64,000 nt of DNA from Candidatus Altimarinota bacterium (lineage in GTDB: Bacteria > Patescibacteriota > Gracilibacteria > UBA4473): the NCBI GenBank assembly GCA_965231215.1, contig OZ246423.1, positions 854,699 to 918,698 on the forward strand, in the 5' to 3' direction. Every line of letters starts with the position of its first letter. Within the stretch, counting starts at the first letter, position 1. The notes beneath the pieces are model-generated. The model was not told where the DNA came from and did no database searches. It saw only the letters and a list, made by a program, of their open reading frames with translations. A program made the translations under genes and the position numbers. Shown here in pieces: positions 55,089-64,000 of this stretch.

Positions 55089-55128
55089 AAGATTTGGCTA
55101 TTTCTGGTACAATGATCTGGTAAATTTT

Positions 55129-56043
55129 ATGTCCAGTTTTTCTGTTATCATTCCCAGCTATAATGAAGGTGCGTGGCTTGAACGCACTGTTATGGGCGTA
55201 CTGGAGAATACCAATTACCCAGAGTTTGAGATCATTATTGTAGCCGATAACTGCACCGATAATTCTACCGATTTTTGTAAACAAAAATCTATTCCCAACG
55301 TAGTGCTCTTGGAAACTTCACACAATTTGGGAGCGATAGAAGCTCGGAATTATGGCGCTTCTATTGCCGAGGGAGAAAACTTAGTCTTTATTGATGCTCA
55401 TGAAGTTCCGGAAACCGATAATTGGATTTCGGTGCTATTTGACTTGCTTGAGAAGCCTAATACGGGAGCGGCAACAATACCGATTTCAAGCTTCGAAGAC
55501 CCTCAGAGGATTGGGTATGTGTATCGCCTTAAGGATTTGGCGCTAGAGCCTGCTTGGGAGTCGAGAGAATCAAAACATTTACCATTAGTACCGGTTATTC
55601 CTGGGGGGTGTTTTGCCATTAAAAAATCTGTATTTATCGAAACAGGAGGGTTTAATCCTTTGTTAAAAAAGTGGGGGAGAGAGGACCTAGAATATTCGCT
55701 TCGTTTGTGGCGAATGGGATATGATTTGAGGTCGTCAAAGGCAGCTAAGATTGCTCACGCATTTAGCCATAAAAGAGCATTTGAGATTAGTTGGGATCAG
55801 GTGGATCATAATATTTTGCTTATTGCTGATTTATTGTTTTCCTCAGAGGCGTGTAAAAAAGTTTGTACACATTTAAAAAAGATTCGTCCACAGAATTATG
55901 ATAAAATTTATCAACAATTATTAAATAATGAAGCCTACCAAGCTTACAAAGCAAAACTACTGCTAAAGCGTAGTTTTGAGGACTATAAGATCGAGTTTAA
56001 AGACTATTTACCAAAAAATTATTCTCTTATACCACAAGTATAA
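55129..56043 (+). CDS. Family 2 glycosyltransferase
   Basis: FSVIIPSYNEG, IIVADNCTDNS and FIDAHE (DxH) motifs. Confidence 0.8.
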   Translation: MSSFSVIIPSYNEGAWLERTVMGVLENTNYPEFEIIIVADNCTDNSTDFCKQKSIPNVVLLETSHNLGAIEARNYGASIAEGENLVFIDAHEVPETDNWISVLFDLLEKPNTGAATIPISSFEDPQRIGYVYRLKDLALEPAWESRESKHLPLVPVIPGGCFAIKKSVFIETGGFNPLLKKWGREDLEYSLRLWRMGYDLRSSKAAKIAHAFSHKRAFEISWDQVDHNILLIADLLFSSEACKKVCTHLKKIRPQNYDKIYQQLLNNEAYQAYKAKLLLKRSFEDYKIEFKDYLPKNYSLIPQV

Positions 56044-57281
56044 AACATTCCAAGCCCTATATTTTTCCAGTCATTATCACTTCCAACTCTTAATGGAGTA
56101 GTGCTATAGCCAATATAACTAGGGACGATTGATCCAAGCTCTCCATGGTTTCCACTTCCCCAACACCATAAAGCACCATCATTCTTTATCGCACAAGAGT
56201 GAGAGTATCCTGAAGCAACGCTTTCCCAAGTGTTCTCACTTCCTACCTGTGTAGGAACCCTCTTACTACCTGTATAGCGTTTTCCCTGACCAAGCTGTCC
56301 ATAGTGATCTCCCCCCCAACACCACAAAGTATTATCTGTTTTTATCGCACATAAGTGTCTTTTTCCTATACCAATACTTTTCCAAGTATCGGTACCAACC
56401 TGAACGGGAGTACTTCGATCTATAGCATCATTCTGTCCTAGTTGTCCATAACGGTTATCTCCCCAGCACCACAAGGTATTATTATTTTTAGTCGCACAGG
56501 CAAATTTATTTCCAAGGTAAATATTTTTCCAATCGTTATCGCTACCAACTTGCACAGGGCTCGGTTGGTTATCTGATGGATCATTACTACCAATTCCAAG
56601 TCTTGAATCAGAATTACTCCCCCAACACGACAAAGTATTATCAGTTGTTATTCCACAAGTATGATCTAATCCTGCTGAAACATCTTTCCAAGTACCAGGT
56701 AATCGCTTAGGGTAATGTTCATACTCATGAATTCCTCCTTTTCTGCCTATTCCTAGCTTCCCAAGGTAAGTGTGTCCCCAACACCATAACGTATTATCAT
56801 CTTTTATTGCACAAACATGTCCAGCTAAACCAAATTCTATAGTATCTGCCAGACTACTTAAGTATGAAGGACTCATTCCCCAACATTGAAGATTATTTCC
56901 ACTTGAAATAGCACAAAAGGAATTCACCCCAATTCCAACTTTGTTCCAACTACTACTTTCAAACTGCTCAGGCTCATGAGTATTTGATAATCCTGGAAGA
57001 GGTGAGCTTCCCCAGCACCAAAGAGCCTCTGGAACATGGCATGCCGAAAATTCAATATTTATGGGTTTATTATTCAGAAAAGAGTGCCATCCTGTGGTGG
57101 TTTGAGTTGGAACAAATCGTTCTTTCCCATCCAAGCTCTTAATTTTTTTACAAATTCCATGAGCATTAATTATTTTATCGGCTGTTCCAATACGGAATCC
57201 AGTAAGAATGGTATTAATTGCAAAAACCTCGTCAAAAAGAAGCAATAACGAAAGTAAGAAAAATAATTTTTTTGTTCTCAT
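56019..57281 (-). CDS. Secreted RCC1-repeat (seven-blade beta-propeller) protein
   Basis: Signal peptide MRTKKLFFLLSLLLLFDEVFA. About 7 repeats of the (N)TLWCWG ... GQLG type. The ATG overlaps the stop of the upstream fibre gene (ATGA). The 3' end overlaps the GT2 gene by 25 nt. Confidence 0.8.
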   Translation of the reverse strand: MRTKKLFFLLSLLLLFDEVFAINTILTGFRIGTADKIINAHGICKKIKSLDGKERFVPTQTTTGWHSFLNNKPINIEFSACHVPEALWCWGSSPLPGLSNTHEPEQFESSSWNKVGIGVNSFCAISSGNNLQCWGMSPSYLSSLADTIEFGLAGHVCAIKDDNTLWCWGHTYLGKLGIGRKGGIHEYEHYPKRLPGTWKDVSAGLDHTCGITTDNTLSCWGSNSDSRLGIGSNDPSDNQPSPVQVGSDNDWKNIYLGNKFACATKNNNTLWCWGDNRYGQLGQNDAIDRSTPVQVGTDTWKSIGIGKRHLCAIKTDNTLWCWGGDHYGQLGQGKRYTGSKRVPTQVGSENTWESVASGYSHSCAIKNDGALWCWGSGNHGELGSIVPSYIGYSTTPLRVGSDNDWKNIGLGMFYTCGIRE

Positions 57282-59155
57282 AGATTCATAACTTCCTTTA
57301 ATTTATTAATTTGTTCTTGTTGATTTTCAATTAATTTCTGTTGTTGATCCGTTAGTTCTTTCATTTCTTTTAAGGCCTCAACAAGTATGGCATTTATATT
57401 TCCATAGCGAACCGACTTCAGCCCATCCACCTCGCTTGTTTCTACGAGTTCTGGTAGGACTCTTTCAACATCTTGAGCAATGAAACCAATAGAATTTTTA
57501 TCAGAATTATTCCATTTAAATTTAACACCTTCTAATTGCTGAATAATTTTTATTGGATTTTTGATTTTCAAAATGTCTTTTTTCAAACGCTTATCAGAGG
57601 AGTAAACAAAATCTGTTGCTAGAACTGTTCCTTCAACATCTAGCTTCTGAGAAGGGGCCGTCGTCCCAATCCCGACATTACCCGTATGCGCAACCGTCAT
57701 GGAAGGTGTCCCGCCATAATAGGAATTACCAGCAGCACCATCTACATAAAACCGAATATCCCCTGCATTGGACACCAAACGTATCCAGTTGCTTCCACCT
57801 TCAGAATAAAGCCCTAAATCAGTACCAGAAGCCAACCCCGCTTTGTTGATGATGCCCTCTCGAACCCTCAAACCACCACTACCAATATCCAACGTAGCAC
57901 TCGGCGTCGCCGTCCCAAGACCAATATAACCATTACCACCATCAAGCGTAAAGTGCGTATTTTCCCCAACACCACCACCCACATTAATCTTGAATTTATG
58001 ATTATCTGACTGATCCAGTCCTACAGAATACCAAGCATTCCACGGATCATGGAAACGAATTTGCGAGTCAGCATCATTATTCTCAACCTCGATATTCCCG
58101 CCGCGTATCTCTAACTTATTATCCGGATCTGCCGTCCCAATCCCGACATTGCCGCCGACAAGCGCCATGTCAGTTGCAACAGAACGTAAGATAGCCGTAT
58201 TATTACTATCTGTTGTTATATCAAGAATTCTTTGGTCACCCGCTTTATCATTATTAAAAATACTAAAAAATTGATTGTCATCTAGACTTCCTGCTGGCGC
58301 AGCGCCAAGAGCCCTGCCTGCCATTATTATCCCTGAAACATTCAACTTCGCATTAGGAGACTCCGTCCCAAGCCCGACATTGCCATTCGCTGCAATACTC
58401 AAACCATGATACCAATTGGTACCATCATTATTATAGATAGAGAGCGCATTCGGCGCACCATAAGAAGATGGTCTCTTAACAAAATCTGTAAAGTGTGAGC
58501 CACCATTGCTACTTTGCAAACGTAACGTATGGCCAGTATTATCCGGCGAAAGAACGTGCAACGGCAAACCAGGCGTCGCCGTCCCAATGCCAACCCTACC
58601 GGTTTCTGTCACTCGCATAAGTTCAGCCCAGTTACCGCCTGGGCCAGCGGCATTTTTTCCGATGACGAGGGCTCGGTTATCATTATCATCATTATTCCAG
58701 TCCATAGAAAGATAAACATTGTCTTCCCCATTTAGCTCTAGAGCTCCATTACTGTCATAAATAGTGCCGCCTCTTACCAGCAGTGTACCATCTATTTGAA
58801 GATCTCCGTCTTCATCAATGTTGGCTTTATCTGCATCGGCTCCTGTTCCAATCTGAAAGAGTTTTTCATTGGCGGTAGGAGAGGCTTTGTGAATTGAAAA
58901 ATGTGCCGGAAAAGTATCGGTTCCAATACCGACTTTCCCATTAAGATAATAGAGGTCTTGACCGCTGAAATTCCAAACCTGATAGCCTAAAATATCAACA
59001 GCGGTAGAGAGGCTTAGGAGATCAGTTCTTACCTTGTTCCAATCTGAGGCCCGAATAAGTTCTCCACTATTGACAGTGGGAGTGGTTATTGTCACCGCAG
59101 CGTAAGAAGTATTTGAGAAACTGAACAACAGCCATGCAAGCAATAGAGTTCTCAT
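57278..59155 (-). CDS. Exported modular fibre protein A with a C-terminal peptidase S74 intramolecular-chaperone domain
   Basis: Signal peptide MRTLLLAWLLFSFSNTSYA. Six GxVGIGT-headed modules. The C-terminus (57281-57598) reads SDKRLKKDI ... GFIAQDVERVLPELV ... coiled coil, matching the tail-fibre/endosialidase autochaperone. Confidence 0.8.
   Translation of the reverse strand: MRTLLLAWLLFSFSNTSYAAVTITTPTVNSGELIRASDWNKVRTDLLSLSTAVDILGYQVWNFSGQDLYYLNGKVGIGTDTFPAHFSIHKASPTANEKLFQIGTGADADKANIDEDGDLQIDGTLLVRGGTIYDSNGALELNGEDNVYLSMDWNNDDNDNRALVIGKNAAGPGGNWAELMRVTETGRVGIGTATPGLPLHVLSPDNTGHTLRLQSSNGGSHFTDFVKRPSSYGAPNALSIYNNDGTNWYHGLSIAANGNVGLGTESPNAKLNVSGIIMAGRALGAAPAGSLDDNQFFSIFNNDKAGDQRILDITTDSNNTAILRSVATDMALVGGNVGIGTADPDNKLEIRGGNIEVENNDADSQIRFHDPWNAWYSVGLDQSDNHKFKINVGGGVGENTHFTLDGGNGYIGLGTATPSATLDIGSGGLRVREGIINKAGLASGTDLGLYSEGGSNWIRLVSNAGDIRFYVDGAAGNSYYGGTPSMTVAHTGNVGIGTTAPSQKLDVEGTVLATDFVYSSDKRLKKDILKIKNPIKIIQQLEGVKFKWNNSDKNSIGFIAQDVERVLPELVETSEVDGLKSVRYGNINAILVEALKEMKELTDQQQKLIENQQEQINKLKEVMNL
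57666..57918 (-). repeat. Copy A of the 253-bp identical internal module
   Basis: Identical by eye to 60454-60706. It encodes GTATPSATLDIGSGGLRVREGIINKAG ... TPSMTVAHTGNVGIG. Confidence 0.9.
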
Positions 59156-59246
59156 ATTTATTTTTTTTCACACTTTATAATACAGGTATTTGTTTTTAGT
59201 TTAAAGTTAAATTTTCTGACTTGTTTTTTTAAAATTTTGGATGGAT
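58578..59246 (-). repeat. Copy A of the 669-bp duplicated block (upstream region, signal peptide and first ~193 codons)
   Basis: Aligns base for base with 61606-62273. By eye there are 5 substitutions in the coding part, and one 1-nt indel plus one adjacent substitution in the upstream T-run. Confidence 0.9.
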
Positions 59247-59321
59247 ATCAGCAAAATTCTCTGTTGATAAACTTTATCTGATCATTGTATCAGAAAACCC
59301 CTAAAAAATAAAGTGAGGATT

Positions 59322-62183
59322 CTATTGATTTTCCAAAGCTTCAACACGAGCTTTGAGGGCATCATTTTCAGCCTTGAGCTCTTGAATTGCTTTGACGAGG
59401 ATAGGCGCCATCTGACCATAGGCCAAAGACTTCGTGCCCATCTCATCATCCGCCGTGCTCACCAGCTCCGGCACCAAAGCCTCAACCTCTTGCGCCAAGA
59501 AACCAACCTGATGCACTTGCTCCGCCCGCTGCGCCTCATCGATCCAATCAAACGCCACCGGCTTCATCGCCATCACCGTATCCAAACCATAATCCAGATC
59601 CACCACATTGGTCTTCAACCGAGCATCAGAAAAAGTCGACCAAGTCGACCCCGTATTCGCCCCGCCCCCCCCACCAAGTGAGGACTGAGCCACACAATTA
59701 CCTCCAGAAGTATCACAAATTTGATTCGTGCGTACTCCTCCACCGTCAGCTCGAATACCCGCCCCTGAATAAAGCCACTTATTTCCATAAACTCTCAACC
59801 AAGTAGAATCGGTCATATGGAATCCTCCTCCATAATTTTGGAAATAAATTCCATTATTTCCATTCACTCGAAGCCAATCTCCTAGAATCTGAACTCCATT
59901 ATGGATGAAAATACGCCCACCAAATGTAGCATCGTTATTTTCCATATTTATAGACAAGGGCCACTGTCCATTGTATTGACACCAATTATTACCCCCTCCA
60001 ACGCCATCATTACCACAACCTCGTAAAAAATACATTACATTAGCATTCATATGTATCATGGCCGAACGATGATCTACATCTCTAAAGTAAATGGTTGGGT
60101 AATTACTTCGAATGGTTAACCCATTGGCATATCCATCGCCTCCATTCCCAACCTGAAGTTTGGTAGTTGGGCTTGAAGTTCCAATCCCGACATTGCCCTG
60201 CATACCAAAATAACTTAGGTTAGGCCTAAAAACGGCATACTCTGTATATTCTCCGGGATTATCTCTCCATCTAAAAATCCTTAACCCTTGATCATAATTA
60301 TCAATGGTAATTCGCCCATTTCTATTGCTTTCTGGATCAGCATTCATTAACACCATTTCACCTCCTTCAGTAGCTGTGTTTTGAGAGTCTATTCTCAAAT
60401 AATTGGTTCTCAAATCCCCAGCTACCTGTAGTTTTGAGGTTGGATTAGCGATTCCAATCCCGACATTACCCGTATGCGCAACCGTCATGGAAGGTGTCCC
60501 GCCATAATAGGAATTACCAGCAGCACCATCTACATAAAACCGAATATCCCCTGCATTGGACACCAAACGTATCCAGTTGCTTCCACCTTCAGAATAAAGC
60601 CCTAAATCAGTACCAGAAGCCAACCCCGCTTTGTTGATGATGCCCTCTCGAACCCTCAAACCACCACTACCAATATCCAACGTAGCACTCGGCGTCGCCG
60701 TCCCAATCCCGACATTACCAGAAGGTTTAATAGTTACTTTTTCAGAAAATGAACCAAAACCAATATTAGGGGCTAAGCCTTCAGTATTCCAATGTCCTAA
60801 TCTTATATCTGTTGTAGAGCCTGCTGCAATAGCCGGATATTGCCCATTCTTTTTCACAAACCCTAAACGAGAATTAACACCAGAGTCAGCTCCCATATAA
60901 ATATCCTCTCCAGTGGCTACTACATTTCCTCCAGCTACTAATTTTGTCTTGGTCCCAAAAGGGCTCGGAGATGTAGCAGTACCAGCCAGAACGATACCCC
61001 CTGTTGGGTTAAGCAGAAGATTCCTGGCGTTATTAGTCGCATTAAACTCTTTATGGTAAGCCTGTAACCAAGGCCCTCCATCAGCAACACCTATATCCAT
61101 AACATTTGTACTATTTACAGTCTGAAATCGAGCTATAGCCCCAGGACTAGGGGTAGTAGCATCTGGCAGCGATTGTCCAGACGATGTTACATGTAATTTT
61201 TCCAATGGAGTATTAGTCCCAATCCCGACATTGCCAGAAGCCCGAGTAACGTTGCTACCACTTTCTGTCCAGGTAGAACTCCCGCCACCACTACTCAAAC
61301 TTCCAGCGGGAACACAGTTACCTCCATTTTGATCACAGTACTCTGTAGCGCCTATTTTCCCTTCAACATCTAGCTTTAGCCCCGAGGAGGGGCTGATTGT
61401 ACCAATCCCGATATTCCCATTTCCTAGATTCAAGGTCATCATATCACCGCCACCACCAGTAGAAGAAAATCTAGCTGTATCCTGAGCTCCTGCATAAGTT
61501 TTTATTCTTAATGAGTCTGTAGCATTACTAATAATTAAGCCGTCATCACTAGCTCCACCATTAACTTTCATATCTCCGACCACCTGAAGCGCATGAGATG
61601 GATTTGCCGTCCCAATGCCAACCCTACCGGTTTCTGTCACTCGCATAAGTTCAGCCCAGTTACCGCCTGGGCCAGCGGCATTTTTTCCGATGACAAGGGC
61701 TCGGTTATCATTATCATCATTATTCCAGTCCATAGAAAGATAAACATTGTCTTCCCCATTTAGCTCTAGAGCTCCATTACTGTCATAAATAGTGCCGCCT
61801 CTTACCAGCAGTGTACCATCTATTTGAAGATCTCCGTCTTCATCAATGTTGGCTTTATCTGCATCGGCTCCTGTTCCAATCTGAAAGAGTTTTTCATTGG
61901 CGGTGGGAGAGGCTTTGTGAATTGAAAAATGTGCCGGAAAAGTATCGGTTCCAATACCGACTTTCCCATTAAGATAATAGAGGTCTTGACCGCTGAAATT
62001 CCAAACCTGATAGCCTAAAATATCAACAGCGGTAGAGAGGCTTAGGAGATCAGTTCTTACCTTGTTCCAATCTGAGGCCCGAATAAGTTCTCCACTATTG
62101 ACAGTGGGAGTGGTTATTGTTATCGCAGCGTAGGAAGTATTTGAGAAACTGAACAACAGCCATGCAAGCAATAGAGTTCTCAT
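59322..62183 (-). CDS. Exported modular fibre protein B (paralog of A) with a C-terminal peptidase S74 intramolecular-chaperone domain
   Basis: The first ~193 aa match A with a single difference (V21I). Seven GxVGIGT modules. The C-terminus (59325-59630) reads SDARLKTNV ... GFLAQEVEALVPELV ... LKAENDALKARVEALE. Confidence 0.8.
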   Translation of the reverse strand: MRTLLLAWLLFSFSNTSYAAITITTPTVNSGELIRASDWNKVRTDLLSLSTAVDILGYQVWNFSGQDLYYLNGKVGIGTDTFPAHFSIHKASPTANEKLFQIGTGADADKANIDEDGDLQIDGTLLVRGGTIYDSNGALELNGEDNVYLSMDWNNDDNDNRALVIGKNAAGPGGNWAELMRVTETGRVGIGTANPSHALQVVGDMKVNGGASDDGLIISNATDSLRIKTYAGAQDTARFSSTGGGGDMMTLNLGNGNIGIGTISPSSGLKLDVEGKIGATEYCDQNGGNCVPAGSLSSGGGSSTWTESGSNVTRASGNVGIGTNTPLEKLHVTSSGQSLPDATTPSPGAIARFQTVNSTNVMDIGVADGGPWLQAYHKEFNATNNARNLLLNPTGGIVLAGTATSPSPFGTKTKLVAGGNVVATGEDIYMGADSGVNSRLGFVKKNGQYPAIAAGSTTDIRLGHWNTEGLAPNIGFGSFSEKVTIKPSGNVGIGTATPSATLDIGSGGLRVREGIINKAGLASGTDLGLYSEGGSNWIRLVSNAGDIRFYVDGAAGNSYYGGTPSMTVAHTGNVGIGIANPTSKLQVAGDLRTNYLRIDSQNTATEGGEMVLMNADPESNRNGRITIDNYDQGLRIFRWRDNPGEYTEYAVFRPNLSYFGMQGNVGIGTSSPTTKLQVGNGGDGYANGLTIRSNYPTIYFRDVDHRSAMIHMNANVMYFLRGCGNDGVGGGNNWCQYNGQWPLSINMENNDATFGGRIFIHNGVQILGDWLRVNGNNGIYFQNYGGGFHMTDSTWLRVYGNKWLYSGAGIRADGGGVRTNQICDTSGGNCVAQSSLGGGGGANTGSTWSTFSDARLKTNVVDLDYGLDTVMAMKPVAFDWIDEAQRAEQVHQVGFLAQEVEALVPELVSTADDEMGTKSLAYGQMAPILVKAIQELKAENDALKARVEALENQ
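60454..60706 (-). repeat. Copy B of the 253-bp identical internal module
   Basis: See copy A. Confidence 0.9.
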
Positions 62184-62273
62184 ATTTATTTTTTTTCACA
62201 CTTTATAATACAGGTATTTGTTTTTAGTTTAAAGTTAAATTTTCTGACTTGTTTTTTGAAATTTTGGATGGAT
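61606..62273 (-). repeat. Copy B of the duplicated block
   Basis: See copy A. Confidence 0.9.
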
Positions 62274-62415: not shown

Positions 62416-64000
62416 TTAGTTTTTACGGCAATAGAGTACGGCGACATTCTTTGGTCGGGTTTCAGCGCCACCAACGGCGTTTGATGCATTCGCAATGACG
62501 CCGTTATTATAGCCTCGTTGATAATGCCCGCCAAAGGACCAACCGCTGCCATTATAGGAATTTTGCGGAATATGCTCGTGTGACTTAAATTCATCTTCTT
62601 GCGTGCTTCCCGGCGCTCTCACCCCGCCAGGGTCAATGGTTCCGGTGCTGTCAATACCCCGCAAGAAGCGTCCGCGTGCAGCGGTATATTCGCTCCATCC
62701 AGCAGGGCAGGACGTCAAGTCAAACGCCTGAATCTCTCCAGAAATTCGGCCGCCACCCGAACTGCCGCCGGAGCTGCCGAAATAGCCACAACGGCCCTCA
62801 TCACAAATATCGGCCAAATCCACACCGGCACCATCCGTGGCACCACAACGGGTGCTTAAACCACTAATACCAGAAATATTTCCAGTTCCATCAAAGGCGA
62901 TATACCGATTAAAATTCCCTACAATTGCATACCAAACCGAGTCATTCTTGTGTTCCGACATAACCAGAATCTGACCCCATGTTCCCGAGCTGTAATTACA
63001 CATCAAGTAATCCGGCCACTTCGAAACACCCGCAGGCGCGACCGGTAACTTCAGTGTCGACGCAAGATTAGACCCCGCGATAGCATCAGAAATAGCCGCC
63101 CCCGAACTCGAACCCGACCCGCCGCCGGGTACAACTTTATATACCTTATAATCCACCGTGCCGCCGCAGCCTGCATTGTTGTAGATGGTCATGGAGATTT
63201 TACTCGAGCCATCCGTTCCAAAGGTGGCGTACATATAGCCGCAGCCTGCCGTGCTATAGGTCGGTTCAAGTGCGGCGATGTATTCGTAACCGTTTGCTAG
63301 CCCCGTTACGGCAGAGGCGTATGAATTACCTGGGACAGTGGCGGTACCGGACGCTACTTCTTCCAGCCCCAGTGCGCTGCCACCCCCCGAACTCGACCCG
63401 CCGCCACCGAAATAGATGACTTTACCTTCGCTGATGAGCGTATCTATCGATTTGCCGTTACAGTCTGAGCCGGTGGCATGCGTCTGATAAGCCGCAGTCT
63501 GCGCCTTAGTCGTGGGATGGAAGATGAACTGCGCATTGTCCGAATCACTCGGGTCGGAATTCGCGACATAATAGACGCCGTTGGTTGCGTGGTCATGATC
63601 GGCGATAAACATTCGTGTGTAGCCATTTTGCGTACATTTTAGCGCATCCGGCCAGCCGGATTTGAACACACCGGTTGGTGTGCTCGAACTCGACGAACCC
63701 GAGCTGCCGCCGACTTTAAAGCCGGAGAAATGGGATTCCCTTACGGTTCGTGCGGTGCCGCCATTGTGATAGACAATGACTTCAACCACATCATTGGCAT
63801 TGAGATAGGCTATTCCAGAACAGCTAAATGCTCCTGAATTGCCTGACACTGTGGTGTTATGTCGCGCATAACAAATACTATCTGCTGCCGCGGATTTGCC
63901 AGCATGATTCTTCTGAATTCTAATGATTTGATCGGAGCCAGAGGCCTCAATTTCAGCAGAGGCGTTAAATTGGTAAAAACCTGTTGACGGCACGGTAAAT
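62416..64000 (-). CDS. Multi-domain protein with a C-terminal phage tail-collar domain. The 5' end lies outside the window.
   Basis: Globular segments are joined by Gly/Ser linkers (GGSSGSSSSS, GGGGSSSGGGS, GGGSGSSSG, SSGGSSGGG). The last 109 aa (62419-62745) read GEIQAF ... CPAGW ... RGRFLRG ... GSTQEDEFKSHEH ... ETRPKNVAVLYC, like the Collar domain. The reading frame stays open to the window edge. Confidence 0.7.
   Translation of the reverse strand, partial: FTVPSTGFYQFNASAEIEASGSDQIIRIQKNHAGKSAAADSICYARHNTTVSGNSGAFSCSGIAYLNANDVVEVIVYHNGGTARTVRESHFSGFKVGGSSGSSSSSTPTGVFKSGWPDALKCTQNGYTRMFIADHDHATNGVYYVANSDPSDSDNAQFIFHPTTKAQTAAYQTHATGSDCNGKSIDTLISEGKVIYFGGGGSSSGGGSALGLEEVASGTATVPGNSYASAVTGLANGYEYIAALEPTYSTAGCGYMYATFGTDGSSKISMTIYNNAGCGGTVDYKVYKVVPGGGSGSSSGAAISDAIAGSNLASTLKLPVAPAGVSKWPDYLMCNYSSGTWGQILVMSEHKNDSVWYAIVGNFNRYIAFDGTGNISGISGLSTRCGATDGAGVDLADICDEGRCGYFGSSGGSSGGGRISGEIQAFDLTSCPAGWSEYTAARGRFLRGIDSTGTIDPGGVRAPGSTQEDEFKSHEHIPQNSYNGSGWSFGGHYQRGYNNGVIANASNAVGGAETRPKNVAVLYCRKN

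Follow-up and report, generated by a model that had tools for sequence, protein, structure and literature searches.

Results

Two fiber genes share a head and one internal module

Two neighboring genes for secreted, tail fiber-like proteins were analyzed in a 64,000-nucleotide stretch of contig OZ246423.1 (positions 854,699 to 918,698; hereafter the window). We refer to them as S, the short fiber gene, and Lg, the long fiber gene. Both are mosaics. A nearly identical amino terminal head and one identical internal module are set in otherwise very different proteins, the junctions lie at a recurring module-opening motif, the heads are homogenized within the genome against the background between genomes, and distal modules are exchanged laterally. 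We consider it probable, at roughly 75%, that S and Lg were put together by recent grafts within a small repertoire of fibers resembling the mosaic adhesive trimers (MATs) of Bdellovibrio bacteriovorus, and that their host is likely a cell of the Patescibacteria, or candidate phyla radiation (CPR).

BLASTN of the window against itself returned exactly two internal repeats, and a repeat finder detected both. One is the head, already described in an earlier reading of this DNA that used the letters and their translations only (the sequence-only reading). It aligns over 669 columns at 98.95% identity with 6 mismatches and 1 gap (E = 0). Base-by-base alignment located five coding differences, at +51 (TCT/TCC), +61 and +63 (GTG/ATA), +279 (CCT/CCC), and +489 (CTC/CTT) in gene coordinates. 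Three are synonymous and the other two fall in a single codon and give V21I, in agreement with the earlier count. The upstream indel noted before is 1 nt long and lies with an adjoining substitution ~72–76 nt 5′ of the ATG inside an A/T run. The duplicated 5′ flank, put at about 90 nt including a TATTAT box, measures 91 nt. Identity stops directly after GRVGIGTA at codon 193, the point where the earlier reading had placed it, and S continues with TPGLPLHVLS whereas Lg continues with NPSHALQVVG.

The other repeat was absent from the earlier note. It is a 253-bp block that is 100% identical in the two genes, is bounded by the motif at both ends, comprises one whole module (M5), and lies in the same codon phase in both copies. 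The proposed split into a common front end and differing distal parts is thus right for the head but incomplete, since an internal module is also fully shared. Elsewhere, nucleotide-level sharing between S and Lg is confined to a 20–29-nt motif, and their S74 domains have 32% protein identity. A recent duplication of the whole gene is therefore insufficient to produce the pair, and segmental recombination is required.

S consists of a signal peptide (residues 1–20), an N-terminal segment (21–72), six modules (M1–M6) that each begin with G-x-[VI]-G-[IL]-G-T, and an S74 chaperone. Lg has a signal peptide, N-terminal segment, and M1 as in S. Its remaining modules differ except for M5, and it carries its own divergent S74 domain. 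By inspection, without a predictor, both proteins start with a Sec-type leader, MRTLLLAWLLFSFSNTSYA, whose n-region is basic and whose core is hydrophobic, with a small-x-small site for cleavage before AVTITT. The Pfam family PF13884 (Peptidase_S74), an intramolecular chaperone known from endosialidases and tail fibers, matches S with E = 3e-15 (56.7 bits) and Lg with E = 1.2e-15 (58.0 bits) at a cut-off of 22. The catalytic S-D-x-x-x-K is intact in both, as SDKRLK at residues 520–525 of S and SDARLK at residues 852–857 of Lg, and the S74 domain of S aligns with those of a phage long tail fiber (6F45) and MyRF (7DC3). The modules, ~60–190 residues long, are probably beta-helical, and the S74 chaperone should trimerize the fiber and then cut itself off.

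The mosaic junctions coincide with the module-opening motif

The motif that opens the modules, G-N-V-G-I-G-T-x-x-P-x-x-K-L, occurs six times in S and seven times in Lg at spacings of 61–172 residues. Its variants conform to G-x-[VI]-G-[IL]-G-[TI], and in most x-x-P-x-x-[KT]-L follows. Most internal junctions fall within or right at this motif. Between S and Lg, these are the end of the head and both ends of M5. The closest genome is OZ245819.1, the 1,295,315-bp chromosome of a metagenome-assembled Candidatus Altimarinota bacterium in the Patescibacteria group (hereafter OZ245819), and in the comparison with it both ends of the Lg module M2′ and the start of the tract that carries the S tip lie at the motif. 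The joint between M2′ and M5 inside P0002, a fiber gene of OZ245819, is at the motif too, and P0123 and P0056, a pair with a second head type (head B) that is 77% identical, diverge there. The tract common to the two OZ245819 paralogues ends ~25 nt beyond its GNIGIGT motif. Motif windows make up ~8% of the coding sequence, and by our own rough estimate at least seven such coincidences have a chance probability of ~1e-8.

The DNA that encodes the motif is itself uniform. The 14-nt word AATGTCGGGATTGG is present in six exact copies and in eight copies at one mismatch or fewer, compared to 0.01 expected, and these six exact and two one-mismatch copies are found among the 13 motifs. Its codons include the rare GTC (13% of Val codons) and GGG (20% of Gly codons), and the synonymous motif sites vary freely in other genomes. 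Junctions placed at the motif combined with uniform motif DNA fit repeated recombination through the motif.

Heads follow the genome and distal modules do not

The syntenic locus of OZ245819 (L001) holds a single fiber gene, P0002, beside the same RCC1, glycosyltransferase family 2 (GT2), aminotransferase, rpL25, and M50 genes. A second paralogue, P0004 (locus L002), is embedded in a type IV pilus-like cluster 400 kb from P0002. P0002 and P0004 have 1242 bp in common at 99.6% identity, and this stretch begins exactly at the mature N-terminus. Their promoters and leaders are different, and that of P0004 joins at the same residue. The heads of the window and of OZ245819 are 76% identical at the nucleotide level, and the flanking housekeeping genes (rplY, the M50 peptidase gene, rpe, and the lumazine-binding gene) are 70–78% identical. 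Near-identity of heads within a genome together with background identity between genomes points to concerted evolution; as judged from these alignments, the data indicate that homogenization has acted on the heads of each genome, which diverge at the pace of the genome itself.

Distal modules give the reverse picture. M2′ of Lg matches a module in each of the two OZ245819 fiber genes, at 98.6% and 98.2% identity. The end of S (M5-M6-S74), the whole RCC1 gene, and the 3′ end of the GT2 gene form a tract with an average identity to OZ245819 of ~99.5% over 2 kb. From 57907 to 55911 most 100-nt windows are at 98–100% and two are at 92 and 95, and the left edge of the tract lies in the M5 motif. 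P0002 joins an Lg-type M2′ directly to an S-type M5-M6-S74. These data indicate that M2′, and the S tip along with RCC1, moved between lineages very recently by lateral exchange. The RCC1 gene appears to have been transferred with the S tip, the two traveling as one unit, and their joint movement suggests a functional partnership between the fiber tip and the RCC1 propeller. The tips are accordingly the mobile part of these proteins, and the head is kept alike inside one genome and differs from lineage to lineage.

Several expectations of the sequence-only reading can be judged from this comparison. Recent recombination as the source of uniformity is borne out by the identity of synonymous sites and non-coding flank in a chromosome whose third head-bearing gene is only 47% identical, and the tips are exchangeable, as the modules recur in other combinations in the second genome. 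Conservation of the head against variability of the tip holds among the paralogues of one genome but is reversed between genomes. The earlier reading had held that the N-terminal block should not diverge in related genomes at the rate of everything else; between these two genomes it does, with the head at the 76% background and some distal modules at 98.6–99.5%.

The surroundings of P0004 (L002 5163–13900; 695–717 kb of OZ245819) encode PilO, T2SSF, three N_methyl pilins, and a T2SSE ATPase. P0004 ends in a Gly-rich tip. Its S74 is a separate, out-of-frame open reading frame (ORF) of 112 residues, with 42% identity to the S74 of Lg and no SDxxxK at its start. A frameshift, pseudogene formation, or an indel error in the long reads could account for this detached S74.

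The head belongs to a small and divergent family

P0121 is the third gene with this head on the chromosome, and its head has 47% identity. The heads of tandem genes in more distant relatives (L005–L007) are 46% identical, and the range for further heads of this genome and clade is 46–53%. Across the family, 50 of 176 alignment columns are invariant. The second half of the head, module M1, recurs internally in many fibers. An exhaustive search with the head gave 134 hits, and among 1.84 billion representative proteins only ~6 span its full length. Full copies were found five times in GTDB genomes and five times in JGI metagenomes. The IMG/VR viral contigs contained no full head, and residues 70–109 matched one contig. 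Metagenome and viral scans for near-identical strains returned relatives at 51–59% identity and one partial viral match. The other head-bearing relatives are labeled Gracilibacteria or simply 'bacterium' from groundwater. By its divergence the head family is old, and in these searches it is not detectably related to anything beyond a small clade.

The more distant relatives have a fixed gene order at the head-bearing locus (L005 619–18388, L006, L007): a 2668-residue LVIVD/LamG protein, a 421-residue head protein with a Cys-rich C terminus, a head-bearing fiber of ~800 residues, a 730-residue Ig-like protein, and gyrA. The ~800-residue fiber has a Cys-rich tip without S74.

Locus context

The contig is 1,326,059 bp long, and at least five secreted fiber genes are located on this 1.33-Mb chromosome. 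The content of the window is cellular and includes ClpB, LysS, EF-Tu, GMP synthase, PBP1A, MacB/HlyD, an M50 peptidase, and rpL25. On the 3′ side of S are the RCC1 gene, a convergent GT2 glycosyltransferase gene, and a class IV aminotransferase gene. Feature coordinates are collected in Table 1.

Table 1. Positions of the fiber genes, their shared segments, and adjacent features in the window
Feature	Position	Strand	Remarks
Gene S, 625 aa	57278–59155	-	ORF list, translation, Pfam PF13884, module map
Gene Lg, 953 aa	59322–62183	-	ORF list, translation, Pfam PF13884, module map
Shared head, S copy	58578–59246	-	91 nt of 5′ flank and codons 1–193
Shared head, Lg copy	61606–62273	-	Self-BLASTN and base-by-base alignment
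Shared block 2 (module M5), S copy	57666–57918	-	aa 409–491 and start of the next motif
Shared block 2 (module M5), Lg copy	60454–60706	-	aa 489–571
Lg module M2′	61402–61623	-	aa 188–261
S74 chaperone/self-cleaving domain of S	57281–57598	-	aa 520–625, SDKRLK
S74 domain of Lg	59325–59630	-	aa 852–953, SDARLK
Joint motif GRVGIGT, head end in S	58580–58600	-	Lg counterpart 61608–61628
Joint motif GYIGLGT, start of S M5	57911–57931	-	Junction of the S/Lg 100% block and the OZ245819 tract
Joint motif GNVGIGT, end of S M5 block	57662–57682	-	Lg counterpart 60450–60470
Tract near-identical to OZ245819	55911–57930 (L001 11249–13300)	-	S M5-M6-S74, whole RCC1 gene, GT2 3′ end
Promoter-like TTTAAA-17-TATTAT, S	59177–59205	-	Consensus match only
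Promoter-like TTTAAA-17-TATTAT twin, Lg	62205–62233	-	Consensus match only
RCC1-repeat beta-propeller protein gene, secreted	56019–57281	-	Start overlaps S stop (ATGA)
Third fiber gene P0123 (1908 aa), 3′ part	62416–64000	-	Directly 5′ of Lg; runs past the window

P0123 and the window are 100% identical across the 527 visible residues. Its head is of a different type (EYD..TGDAFTATELNTLVNVVKGLKR) and is 77% identical over 279 residues to that of P0056 on the same chromosome, which gives this genome at least two head types. P0123 also has an internal M1-like module (residues 246–387). Its repeated domains look C1q/TNF-like by eye and are separated by Gly/Ser linkers, and local GC content reaches 49%.

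A 30-nt inverted repeat with the core TTTCTGRTACAATGATCWGRTAAA is present in only two copies in the window (55101–55130 and 59267–59296), which bracket S, RCC1, and GT2. The start codon of the GT2 gene directly adjoins one arm; the second arm is 112 nt 5′ of the S ATG and just past the Lg stop. The repeat contains TGnTACAAT, which resembles an extended -10 element, and it was not found in loci L001–L012. The two copies could serve as a common promoter or operator or mark the ends of a mobile segment. The GC skew between 56000 and 62000 changes from positive to about -0.2 to -0.26, reflecting the switch to minus-strand genes, and its magnitude over the fiber/RCC1 block exceeds that of other minus-strand stretches (28–50 kb). 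An Rfam scan of 54–64 kb gave no match and hence no riboswitch in the duplicated leader, and a tRNA scan of the whole window detected no gene and no tRNA integration site. UGA is read as Gly in many Gracilibacteria. This code was rejected here: none of the 14,662 codons read in 31 genes is an internal TGA, and 3 of these genes terminate with TGA, so the standard code applies.

Discussion

Origin of the mosaic

The near-identical head and the identical M5 are probably recent homologous-recombination grafts, of the gene-conversion type, between old and very different paralogues, made either by copying of the head or by replacement of the tips. The crossovers lie in the motif, kept in this genome as the word AATGTCGGGATTGG, and RecA-type recombination would be the mechanism. 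Homogenization of the heads within a genome may let every fiber use one common, lineage-specific docking partner on the surface or one export route. Reassortment among paralogues and exchange between lineages affect the distal modules and tips, once along with the downstream RCC1 gene, and binding would be altered as a result. Diversification would thus proceed by recombination at module joints, both among paralogues and with the DNA of other lineages. By analogy with MAT and phage fibers, the products are probably trimeric, dock to the cell surface through the head as an anchoring domain, and bind host or prey surfaces with their tips.

Several points weigh against this interpretation. Expression, trimerization, S74 cleavage, and surface location of S and Lg are predicted only. 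The AlphaFold2 monomer model of the head, based on a 7-sequence alignment, has a mean predicted local distance difference test score (pLDDT) of 46.5, and modeling a single chain of an intertwined trimer would be expected to fail. The junctions could lie at the motif owing to selection for chimeras that fold and not to a preference of recombination; these two explanations are compatible and not exclusive. Finally, the tracts shared between genomes could in principle stem from a consensus artifact between co-assembled strains.

Alternative explanations

Part of the pattern could be generated by a recent tandem duplication that included the promoter and was followed by replacement of distal modules in one copy, with no gene conversion of the head. 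The tandem, direct arrangement of S and Lg, the duplication of the promoter-proximal 91 nt with the head, and the single gene at the syntenic locus of OZ245819 all agree with this scenario. Several recombination events are still needed to obtain the unrelated bodies and the 32% identity of the S74 domains, and M5 calls for a separate, younger event, as it shows 0 differences compared to 7 in the head. Nor can duplication in place explain the head identity in OZ245819, where the genes are 400 kb apart and have differing promoters and signal peptides, and tandem head-bearing pairs are old in the relatives. We regard this scenario as unlikely, while recognizing that it overlaps with the graft model in that both are segmental homologous recombination. 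The direct repeats might also be a programmed switch that yields alternative fiber sets in the population in the manner of antigenic or phase variation, a proposal that we view as quite doubtful. Recombination between the heads would delete or regenerate Lg and recombination between the M5 copies would fuse Lg(1–571) to the S tip. In favor of a switch, the two pairs of repeats run in direct orientation with matching codon phase, which would keep either product in frame, and P0002 has the module order predicted for an M5-M5 fusion. Against a switch, the genes of 52.5–64 kb, including P0123, encode no site-specific recombinase or reverse transcriptase, and S and Lg are complete expression units, not silent cassettes.

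The remaining explanations concern the source and nature of the sequence. Repeats of 0.25–0.7 kb can confuse short-read assemblers, and a shared head would be mimicked if a repeat were collapsed or duplicated or if strains were joined into a chimera. The copies, however, differ at 7 positions and have unique flanks, both reside in complete in-frame genes with an intact start, signal peptide, and S74 catalytic motif, the contig extends over 1.33 Mb, and an independently assembled chromosome has the same design; an assembly artifact is thus very improbable. We attach equally little weight to the idea that the genes encode tail fibers of a prophage or a phage-derived particle such as a tailocin or an extracellular contractile injection system. 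The sequence-only reading had compared the architecture to phage tail fibers, and the proteins are indeed fiber-like in their Peptidase_S74, PHROG, and MAT structure matches; the locus, in contrast, is cellular. PHROG tail-fiber families match the distal modules and S74, and tblastn finds phage proteins, but the identities to GenBank phage proteins are at most 30% and are confined to modules and S74. There are no phage structural, integrase, or lysis genes within 10 kb downstream; instead, RCC1, GT2, aminotransferase, rpL25, and M50 neighbors are found in synteny conserved with OZ245819. The absence of a tRNA gene from the window, the Sec-type signal peptides, and the absence of the full head from viral contigs point the same way. 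Extreme purifying selection as the sole cause of head identity can be practically dismissed. The family is moderately conserved, as the invariant columns attest, but here synonymous sites and the non-coding flank are identical as well, heads elsewhere in this genome and clade are at 46–53%, and the syntenic counterpart is at 76% in nucleotides.

Significance

To our knowledge, how ultra-small Patescibacteria/CPR cells recognize and hold their partners is largely unknown beyond the type IV pili of Saccharibacteria. Our literature search found no paper that links S74 or tail fiber-like adhesins to CPR bacteria. The locus analyzed here supplies concrete candidates for partner recognition in the form of a MAT-like repertoire, and tips that move between lineages only ~75% identical behave as expected of host-range determinants. 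A single gene family combines two processes, concerted evolution of the proximal part and lateral exchange of the distal part, with crossovers at a structural motif. The motif joints could guide the engineering of chimeric fibers. Mosaic tail fiber-like adhesins as such are already known from the MAT family (2024) and from the long-established mosaicism of phage fibers. New here are the host lineage, a head with no detectable relatives beyond a small clade, the combination of concerted evolution with transfer between lineages, and the genome-specific uniformity of the joint DNA.

A more far-reaching and tentative extension, which we think unlikely, is that the fibers are host or prey recognition organelles of episymbiotic or predatory Patescibacteria. 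AATGTCGGGATTGG would then be maintained as a dedicated recombination joint for reshuffling fiber modules among paralogues and for importing host-range tips of other lineages along with RCC1, and the uniform, lineage-specific head would dock to a common anchor that is possibly associated with type IV pili.

Comparison with known systems

Phage fibers and tailspikes such as T5 pb1 (4UW8), K1F endosialidase (3GW6), and the S16 long tail fiber (6F45, matched here with E = 1e-9) have an S74 domain with a Ser-Lys dyad as do S and Lg. They are also modular, with distal receptor-binding parts that are exchanged horizontally and a proximal part that fits the particle. S and Lg differ in having Sec signal peptides and no virion context, and their proximal part would dock to the cell surface rather than to a baseplate. 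The ICA domain of MyRF (7DC3) is similarly an S74-type self-cleaving trimerization domain that follows a beta-helical stalk with the same loop motif, but MyRF is a eukaryotic membrane-bound transcription factor without a mosaic repertoire.

Concerted evolution and segmental gene conversion are familiar in families of surface proteins, among them Neisseria pilE/pilS and opa, Anaplasma msp2, and the outer-membrane-protein paralogues of Helicobacter. The fiber genes resemble these families in that one segment is closer among paralogues within a genome than among orthologues between genomes and that short conserved sequences flank variable cassettes. They differ in that both partners are complete, promoter-bearing genes and that the cassettes are whole modules of a probably trimeric fiber. 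Cassette variation of the pilE/pilS kind was rejected for this pair, as S and Lg each have a start, a signal peptide, a promoter-like flank, and a complete C-terminal domain. A shufflon, another invertible segment, or a diversity-generating retroelement was also rejected: the shared blocks are direct repeats, and the genes of 52.5–64 kb encode no recombinase or reverse transcriptase domain. The sole inverted repeat (55101–55130/59267–59296) does not flank alternative tips.

The closest parallel is the MAT family of B. bacteriovorus (Caulton et al. 2024, PMC10769870; PDB 8OND, 8OJN, 8OML, and 8OL4). Strain HD100 has 21 MATs, all with a conserved domain after the signal peptide; thirteen carry S74 and eight have other tips, and the authors suggest 'tip swapping' (PMC10769870). 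The N-terminal domain of MATs has ~130 residues, and no PDB structure of it exists (PMC10769870). The supplementary tables of that paper list no Patescibacteria, and a text search of its main text and supplements gave nothing relevant on recombination, gene conversion, or paralogs. By sequence, the best PDB matches were Bd2133 (8OND, E = 5.9e-12), Bd1334, Bd3182, and Bd2439, followed by 6F45 and MyRF. The phmmer alignments cover the repeated motif, with E = 5.5e-13 for Bd2133 (8OND) and E = 1.6e-5 for Bd3182 (8OJN), and the S motif lines up with the repeats 'GNVGIGATAPTAKLEVAG' of Bd2133. The alignments of S and Lg fall on the MAT 'capping loop' (V-G-G/N-pi-x-x-P-x-x-x-L), and the beta-helix itself is a prediction. 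The likeness extends to a chromosomal multigene repertoire of secreted fibers of ~600–1900 residues, to a common region right after the signal peptide (here residues 21–192) with variable distal parts, and to the coexistence of members with S74 (SDxxxK) and without it, as P0004, P0010, and P0122 of the related genomes end without an in-frame S74. The systems differ in that the host here is Patescibacteria-like with a 1.3-Mb genome and not a predator of the deltaproteobacterial type, and that at least two head types are found in this one genome. A further difference is that recent gene conversion, uniform joint DNA, and transfer between lineages are documented here.

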